Virus record (IMG/VR): IMGVR_UViG_2850784384_000007
Strand: one strand, 5' to 3'
Origin: a virus
Lineage: Duplodnaviria; Heunggongvirae; Uroviricota; Caudoviricetes
Length of the DNA stretch: 59,292 bases
Under the pieces are notes generated by a model, which ran no database searches, was not told the origin of the DNA, and was given only the letters and a program-made list of their open reading frames with translations. A program made the position numbers and the translations under genes. Below are positions 53,243 to 55,120 of the stretch, one piece after another; the stretch's first letter is position 1, and every line of letters starts with the position of its first letter.

Positions 53243-55120
53243 GCCTTAATTGCATCAGTCAGGCGGAGCAGGGCGGCATTATCCAGAGTTGTCGGTTCTG
53301 CCATGCCGCGTATGGCCAACAGCAGATTCTGGACATAGCTGTTTTCCTGATCCATCTCAAGAGCAGTAATGTGTTTGCGTTGTTCACGGGTGGCATGATG
53401 CAGGTATTTCCGATCCCCGGCAGCATACGTAAAAATGTGCAGAAGACGCTGTGTGAACCGCAAAGTGGCTACAGAGACTTCGCAATCCTGGCAATCCTCG
53501 TGGGCGTCTGCCTGCGCGTTTTCTTCCTGGCCTCCCGCCAGTTCTTTGGTTTCTTGAGCATTATCCTGGTGGTGAACGTCGTCTGGCGCTGCTCCCGGTT
53601 TTAGTTCCCATGTCATGGAGTCTTTGCTGAGTTGATAGCGTTCACTCCAGGTAAAATCGATCTCACCTTCAGGGGTGAAGTGGCACACTGAATTTGGCCA
53701 CCTGAACAGAGGTGATATGCTCACCTCAGAACAACACAGGTGCTCCAATGAAAAAAAGAAATTTTAGCGCAGAGTTTAAACGCGAATCCGCTCAACTGGT
53801 TGTTGACCAGAAATACACGGTGGCAGATGCCGCCAAAGCTATGGATGTTGGCCTTTCCACAATGACAAGATGGGTCAAACAACTGCGTGATGAGCGTCAG
53901 GGCAAAACACCAAAAGCCTCCCCCATTACCCCGGAACAAATTGAAATCCGTGAGCTCAGGAAAAAGCTACAACGCATTGAAATGGAGAATGAAATATTAA
54001 AAAAGGCTACCGCGCTCTTGATGTCAGACTCCCTGAACAGTTCTCGATAATCGGGAAACTCAGAGCGCATTATCCTGTGGTCACACTCTGCCATGTGTTC
54101 GGGGTTCATCGCAGCAGCTACAGATACTGGAAAAACCGTCCTGAAAAACCAGACGGCAGACGGGCTGTATTACGCAGTCAGGTACTTGAGCTACATGGCA
54201 TCAGCCACGGTTCGGCCGGAGCAAGAAGCATCGCCACAATGGCAACCCGGAGAGGCTACCAGATGGGACGCTGGCTTGCTGGCAGGCTCATGAAAGAGCT
54301 GGGGCTGGTCAGCTGTCAGCAGCCGACTCACCGGTATAAACGTGGTGGTCATGAACATGTTGCTATCCCTAACTACCTTGAAAGGCAGTTCGCCGTGACC
54401 GAGCCAAATCAGGTGTGGTGCGGTGATGTGACCTATATCTGGACGGGTAAGCGCTGGGCGTACCTCGCCGTTGTTCTCGACCTGTTCGCAAGAAAACCAG
54501 TGGGCTGGGCCATGTCGTTCTCGCCGGACAGCAGGCTCACCATGAAAGCGCTGGAAATGGCATGGGAAACCCGTGGTAAGCCCGGCGGGGTGATGTTCCA
54601 CAGCGATCAGGGCAGTCATTATACGAGCAGGCAGTTCCGGCAGTTATTGTGGCGATACCAGATCAGACAGAGTATGAGCCGGCGCGGAAACTGCTGGGAT
54701 AACAGCCCAATGGAACGCTTCTTCAGGAGTCTGAAGAACGAATGGATGCCGGTGGTGGGTTACGTAAGCTTCAGCGAGGCAGCTCACGCCATAACGGACT
54801 ATATCGTTGGATATTACAGTGCACTAAGACCGCACGAATATAACGGTGGGTTACCCCCAAACGAATCGGAAAATCGATACTGGAAAAACTCTAACTCGGT
54901 GGCCAGTTTTTGTTGACCACTTCAGGGGAAGGTCATTAACGACAGGAAAATTTGTGGCAACAGCTTTAAAATAGTTGCTCAGTTTTTTACCTGACTTAAC
55001 GAGCAGATAGTCCAGAGTGGTGCTGGTCGATTCAAAATCGTCGCTTGCCCACAGGACGACGTCAGGTTCACCGGATGATTTTTTCGCTTTCCGTAACAGG
55101 AAGAGTGGTTTTGTGCTCAT
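53243..55120 (-). pseudogene. unknown acidic protein gene, split by IS911 (3-bp GGG duplication) and 3'-truncated by IS600
   Basis: N-part [65 protein letters not shown] joins in frame to [14 protein letters not shown]... when IS911 and one GGG are removed; C-end runs into IS600. Confidence 0.5.
53676..54924 (+). mobile_element. IS911 copy 3, simple insertion with 3-bp target duplication; orfA 53748-54050, orfB 54077-54916
   Basis: Same termini as copy 1; GGG on both flanks; reading frame of the host gene is restored only with a 3-bp duplication. Confidence 0.9.

Follow-up and report, generated by a model that had tools for sequence, protein, structure and literature searches.

A recE fragment split by IS911 and enclosed by two IS600 copies in a prophage remnant of Shigella flexneri type

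The recE fragment and its interruption

The window analyzed here (the whole 59,292-nucleotide stretch of viral DNA) contains, near its right end, the 5' portion of a recE gene that is interrupted by one insertion sequence, IS911, and ends at another, IS600 (Table 1). The open reading frame (ORF) begins with an ATG at 55118-55120 on the minus strand and proceeds for 65 codons plus one base before reaching the right end of IS911; the frame then resumes at 53675, on the other side of the element, and remains native to 53243, with the IS600 end at 53242. When IS911 is excised and one copy of a duplicated GGG is dropped, the two pieces form one recE frame of 209 native codons, followed by five codons (EVYWQ) and a stop that are supplied from inside IS600, giving a total of 209 + 5 = 214. 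The two ORFs present in the window, 54851-55120 and 53224-53748, are therefore parts of one recE pseudogene. An earlier note on this DNA had described a single ORF hit by IS911 with a GGG duplication and cut at its 3' end by IS600, and both its coordinates and this anatomy are borne out. However, the length it gave, at least 215 amino acids (aa), is reached only if the extra GGG is kept. Its description of the product as acidic suits the reconstructed protein as a whole (pI 5.2) and residues 67-209 (pI 4.9), but not the first 66 residues, which are basic (pI 9.0).

Table 1. Features of the recE locus and its borders (positions in the window)
Feature	Position	Strand	Remarks
racC 5' part, codons 1-26	51929-52005	+	ends in TAT (52003-52005); tblastn with Rac-SA53 RacC; flanks
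IS600, left copy, 1237 bp	52006-53242	+	26-27-bp internal deletion in orfB
recE codons 66-209, distal surviving piece	53243-53675	-	99.8% identity to FDAARGOS_944 prophage stretch 6190-6626 (own numbering); PF06630 match
IS911, 1249 bp, inside recE codon 66	53676-54924	+	identical to the copy at 42364-43612
recE codons 1-65 and first base of codon 66	54925-55120	-	54925-54927 is the extra GGG copy (IS911 target duplication)
racC-recE spacer, 99 bp	55121-55219	-	conserved hairpin 55189-55211; alignment with two Rac-type phages
racC 3' part, from codon 25	55220-55420	-	PRK09790 / phrog_4778 positions 26-79 of 91; tblastn
IS600, right copy, 1263 bp, full length	55421-56683	-	inverted relative to the left copy

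The site of the IS911 insertion can be read directly against two reference genes, in which the uninterrupted recE sequence is CCTTCCCCCTGAAGG, with five C. The window has CCTTCCCC, IS911 and then CCCCTGAAGG, with four C on each side and thus eight in total. Since eight equals five plus three, the insertion carries a 3-bp target duplication (GGG on the plus strand).

The surviving recE sequence comprises codons 1-209 only, about 20-24% of the gene (24% of an 883-aa and 20% of a 1048-aa ortholog). Searches of the whole 59-kb window with full RecE (blastn and tblastn) yielded no match beyond residue 209, and tblastn with RecT yielded no match anywhere in it; the downstream side of recE is the IS600 end. 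Because recE is truncated at IS600, the C-terminal PD-(D/E)XK nuclease domain is not found in the window, and the surviving piece is a gene fragment rather than an enzyme.

Assignment to recE

RecE (exodeoxyribonuclease VIII), the partner of the annealing protein RecT, is a 5'→3' double-strand (ds) DNA exonuclease with its catalytic PD-(D/E)XK domain at the C-terminus. Within a prophage, its gene occupies the early-left operon, after racC. The reconstructed protein matches the entire Pfam model PF06630 (Exonuc_VIII): its residues 2-182 align with all 203 positions of the model at E = 1.2e-67, scoring 228 bits where the cut-off is 25; at this E-value the ORF is not a chance one. It also matches the NCBIfam model PRK09709 (exodeoxyribonuclease VIII) with 195.9 bits over positions 1-188 of 877, not reaching the full-length equivalog cut-off of 1269 bits, as expected for a 5' fragment, and PHROG 607 over positions 7-213 of 883. 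When phage genomes are searched by tblastn, all 209 of the 209 residues align at 96.7-97.6% protein identity with RecE of the Escherichia phages Rac-SA53 and vB_EcoS-683R6, in which the gene is annotated as exodeoxyribonuclease VIII / recE. At the DNA level, a search of 5426 complete E. coli genomes with the reconstructed 626 nucleotides (nt) gives matches in 1690, of which 280 span 80% or more of the query. The best match is that of E. coli FDAARGOS_944 (100%, "RecE family exodeoxyribonuclease"), followed by the canonical recE that encodes WP_001531655.1 (99.0%).

Judged from three independent profile libraries and near-identity to annotated recE, the gene is thus the 5' end of recE and not a member of an unknown family, as the earlier note, which recognized no family, had supposed. 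Nothing was found that speaks against this assignment. The search for intact orthologs that the note had proposed located RecE proteins of 883 aa to about 1048 aa, all with a C-terminal nuclease domain; in the 883-aa ortholog, PF06630 is present at residues 2-182 and PF12684 (PDDEXK-like) at 632-867. The note had also named a match to a routine phage structural protein as a result that would speak against its reading; recE is a routine phage gene, but one of recombination rather than structure, and corresponds to that caution in spirit only. A search of PDB sequences with the 209 aa gave no match at E ≤ 1, so that there is no solved structure for the surviving part of RecE, and neither the recE nor the racC fragment matched any PADLOC-DB protein model at E ≤ 1. 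In E. coli K-12, RecE has 866 aa, of which residues 564-866 form the nuclease domain, while no function is known for the N-terminal domain (PMC11611040). The nuclease domain alone can genetically replace full-length RecE, although the latter improves linear-linear recombination (PMC11611040).

Operon context and the racC pseudogene

The neighbors of the fragment are those of a Rac-type prophage. The gene order in Rac-type phages and prophages is kilR-ydaE-racC-recE-recT-ralR-ydaC-xis-int, and the window keeps the order ydaE, a split racC, and the 5' part of recE. The 5' part of racC has 99% DNA identity to the FDAARGOS_944 prophage, which it follows up to position 5705 of that stretch (own numbering). 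The 3' part lies on the strand of recE, 99 bp upstream of it, and accounts for the small ORF at 55249-55424 (-), which matches PRK09790 / phrog_4778. By tblastn, racC codons 1-26 align at 51929-52006 (+) and codons 25-79 at 55422-55258 (-). Consequently, the 29-aa and 67-aa ORFs that adjoin the IS600 copies are pieces of one racC pseudogene. Both the racC-recE spacer and the start region of recE align with the Rac-SA53 and 683R6 genomes.

This context contradicts the view that the gene sits in a cargo position with its own upstream region (55121-55250). Directly after racC is the normal place of recE in the Rac-type early-left operon, as the order kilR-ydaE-racC-recE-recT in intact prophages, the comparison that the earlier note had suggested, makes plain, and the supposed upstream region consists of the 99-bp spacer and the racC 3' end. 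A promoter scan of 54900-55460 detected no sigma-70-like site, and the sole terminator-like site in this interval is opposite to the strand of the gene. This site is a GC-rich hairpin just 3' of the racC stop. Its position is kept in two Rac-type phages, with a compensatory change in the stem. Its T-run is on the strand opposite racC/recE, so that the transcripts it would terminate are those directed against the operon.

In addition to being split, racC has a -1 frameshift in a run of eight A (A7 here; T7 on the plus strand, 55271-55277), which alters the last ~12 codons and shifts the stop to 55249-55251. The identical frameshift is present in the FDAARGOS_944 prophage, where racC is annotated "frameshifted". 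Since the lesion is common to both, it predates the Shigella IS insertions.

The IS600 copies and the inversion

The left IS600 copy abuts the racC 5' part with its left end and recE codon 209 with its right end. In the racC reference, the sequence at the IS600 site is GGAAAGCGTATTGGCTACGT. The window reads GGAAAGCATAT and then IS600 at the left copy, while the inner side of the right copy reads the reverse complement of TATTGGCTACGT. Comparison with the references thus shows that IS600 entered racC at codon 25/26 and duplicated the 3 bp TAT, one copy of which is at 52003-52005 and the second, inverted (ATA), at 55418-55420. The promoter-proximal part of the operon (rha, ydaE, and the racC 5' part; 50252-52005) is on the plus strand. 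Relative to this remainder of the operon, the segment 53243-55420, which contains the racC 3' part, the spacer, and the IS911-interrupted recE 5' part, runs in the opposite direction. Because the duplication of a single IS600 insertion is divided between two inverted IS600 copies, this segment represents an IS600-mediated inversion. Neither the inversion nor the division of racC between the two IS600 copies had been recognized in the earlier note. Homologous recombination between the two inverted copies could have generated the inversion, as could one intramolecular IS600 transposition; both routes would give the same structure.

The outer flank of the right IS600 copy is not recE. Instead, the element adjoins the start codon of a tail-fiber-assembly gene (tfa; DUF4376, 56658-57302), which is followed by ipaH. 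This points to a further IS600-mediated deletion or rearrangement, which would have removed or relocated recE codons 210 onward together with the following genes, and would have joined the recE locus to the tfa-ipaH end of a prophage.

Origin and fate of the fragment

The most probable account of the locus (about 0.95) is that it is a dead recE fragment left from a lambdoid prophage of Rac type in a genome of S. flexneri type. Its present form is the product of several lesions: insertion of IS911 into recE codon 66 with a 3-bp duplication, replacement of all of recE after codon 209 by an IS600 end, insertion of IS600 into racC at codon 25/26, where 3 bp (TAT) were duplicated, and flipping of 53243-55420 between the opposed IS600 copies, which leaves the segment pointing against its own operon. 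The older -1 frameshift in racC, common to the E. coli relative, came before these. The fragment shares with the Rac prophage, with Rac-SA53 (KU052037), and with WP_001531655.1 RecE the PF06630 region, the upstream racC, the spacer, and the start region. It differs from these Rac-type copies in that it lacks the PF12684 nuclease domain and a downstream recT, has IS911 in codon 66, and lies inverted between two IS600 copies.

The locus is already known. The 89-aa N-terminal ORF is present with the same neighbors in two NCBI chromosomes, LR213452.1 and CP026772.1, to which the window is 99.97% identical over 10-14 kb, and in the public data for both chromosomes the two recE pieces are called as genes and tagged PF06630. 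LR213452.1 is the chromosome of Shigella flexneri AUSMDU00008355 (PMC9376355). The arrangement as a whole (51500-57400) is covered to at least 80% in none of the 5426 complete E. coli genomes, in which most of the matching places are IS copies.

Which form of recE was destroyed is a separate question, and here the relatives point, by a narrow preference, to an ancestor that had already lost the nuclease before IS600 arrived. In the FDAARGOS_944 prophage, whose integrase adjoins ybhA, the recE-like ORF (I6H01_RS20745) is open for 652 aa and contains PF06630 only, without a nuclease domain; it is followed not by recT but by a λ-type gam (PF06064), an AAA_24 ATPase (PF13479; Sak4-like), DUF1187, xis, and int. 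This combination of a 652-aa nuclease-less recE with gam and AAA_24 exists in 9 of the 5426 genomes. The fragment is identical to the FDAARGOS_944 copy over 626 of 626 nt, as against 99.0% for the best canonical recE; the prophage early region of the window (44971-52007) is 99% identical to that of FDAARGOS_944, apart from the IS2-like element at 48921-50251; and the two share the A-run frameshift in racC. However, the window contains no 3' part of recE, the mosaicism of phage early regions means that identity upstream is no guarantee of identity downstream, and 6 differing nt among 626 are slender evidence. Because such an ancestor refines only the ancestry, the assignment to the recE family is unaffected by it.

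A similar nuclease-less RecE is found in strain 13E0780 (EC780_RS12895), where it is followed by gam-bet-exo and the copy is annotated as frameshifted. In both strains these copies are uninterrupted to about residue 600-650 and lie in the correct operon orientation, followed by gam and by xis-int, whereas the copy in the window ends at residue 209, is split, and is inverted. RefSeq labels both as pseudogenes. Thus, RecE N-terminal regions of about 600-650 aa occur in some E. coli prophages before gam and a Sak4-like AAA_24 gene or before gam-bet-exo, and their recurrence without the nuclease hints that the N-terminal region is a separable mosaic module. It is unlikely, though conceivable, that the gene destroyed here was a ~650-aa nuclease-less form that was functional, in which case the RecE N-terminal region would be a self-contained module that cooperates with recombination systems of several unrelated kinds; even then, the window would hold only a dead fragment. 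The recurrence of nuclease-less RecE N-terminal regions beside different recombinase modules in E. coli prophages is of mild interest in itself.

We infer that the recE fragment is non-functional, because it is without the nuclease domain, the RecT partner, and a connected promoter. From its anatomy and the negative consensus-promoter scan it would not be expressed, and 5'→3' dsDNA exonuclease activity is not expected, because the catalytic domain is missing. Very improbably, a part of it might still be expressed and active, either as an 89-aa product (65 RecE residues plus 24 encoded by IS911) or as a distal ORF of 154-174 aa; transcription running outward from an IS, for example, might drive it, and the product might interfere with recombination or act via the RecE N-terminal domain. 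In favor of this, public annotations call both of these open frames as genes, the N-terminal domain has no known function (PMC11611040), and some E. coli prophages retain an open ORF for a RecE form without the nuclease. Nevertheless, PF06630 spans residues 2-182 as one unit, which IS911 splits at 65/66; the inversion has turned the segment away from the promoter of the operon; no promoter-like site was detected in 54900-55460; and the surrounding prophage is full of IS copies, consistent with decay. Finally, the reading of the gene as a new acidic cargo gene (a "moron") from an unknown family, carried between prophage remnants and equipped with a promoter region of its own, for which only the net acidity of residues 67-209 and the lack of a defense-system or solved-structure match would speak, is already refuted by the whole-model PF06630 match, the near-identity to annotated recE, the canonical racC-recE synteny, and an upstream 130 bp that consists of the racC 3' end and spacer without a promoter-like site, and retains almost no probability.

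The locus is, then, an ordinary and already annotated recE pseudogene in an IS-riddled prophage remnant. Its significance is small, as another case in which IS elements have driven the decay of Shigella prophage genes, and its value is mainly for annotation: the two recE ORFs should be merged into one pseudogene, the racC ORFs likewise, and 53243-55420 should be marked as an IS600-bounded inversion. As in other Shigella inversions flanked by IS elements, inverted IS copies form the bounds and the target duplication is divided between them; nothing about the present case is unusual. In a prophage of E. coli strain 6883 (NZ_CP074998.1), an independent recE 5' fragment is likewise enclosed by a pair of IS600 copies in opposite orientation, and thus IS600-bounded rearrangement of recE recurs.

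The prophage ends and the larger rearrangement

Modules of ipaH, a type III effector E3-ligase gene, and a tail-fiber-assembly gene (DUF4376) are present at both ends of the window (1060-3626 and 56658-59292) in opposite orientation and are about 96% identical to each other over 1.6 kb, so that two prophage ends bearing ipaH flank the region. A model with a single prophage, in which the recE-IS600-tfa junction came from one large inversion that linked an IS600 inside recE to another located upstream of tfa, was considered and rejected as sufficient, because the left end of the window has its own tfa-ipaH module, joined to late genes. At least two prophage ends are involved.

Positions 1-477 of the window contain a PBP-family gene resembling ybhB, and past the right end of the window lie pgl (lactonase), a split LysR gene, PrpF, a Na/sulfate symporter, and an aconitase-like gene (ybhD-ybhJ). 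Compared with the gene order of K-12, the pgl/ybhD-ybhJ block is inverted relative to ybhB, which suggests a larger inversion between two prophages at neighboring attachment sites.

Compared with two S. flexneri chromosomes, in which the gene is intact (608 aa), the right ipaH lacks 1 nt of an A run at 58632 and is thereby split into ORFs 58612-59292 and 57482-58435. This deletion could be a true frameshift or a homopolymer sequencing error.

Insertion sequences of the window

The elements at the recE locus are named after the RefSeq annotation of 99%-identical copies (IS600 and IS911), and they have the traits of the IS3 family: orfA/orfB ORFs in all three elements and 3-bp target duplications. 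The window as a whole contains five IS600 copies, two of which are 5'-truncated, three copies of IS911, and one IS2. The last, an IS2-like element of 1331 bp at 48921-50251, has ends that read TGGATTTGCCCC… and a 5-bp CTCAG target duplication, and is not present in the otherwise 99%-identical prophage of E. coli FDAARGOS_944. The presence of many IS600, IS911, and IS2 copies in one prophage, with target duplications of 3, 3, and 5 bp, resembles what is seen in IS-driven decay in Shigella.

Three of the five IS600 copies (26958-28012, 39415-40651, and 52006-53242) have in common the 26-27-bp internal deletion, which removes nine orfB codons (…VATQEGWLYLAG… becomes …VAG…). This defective variant has multiplied, presumably because it was mobilized in trans, or has spread by recombination.
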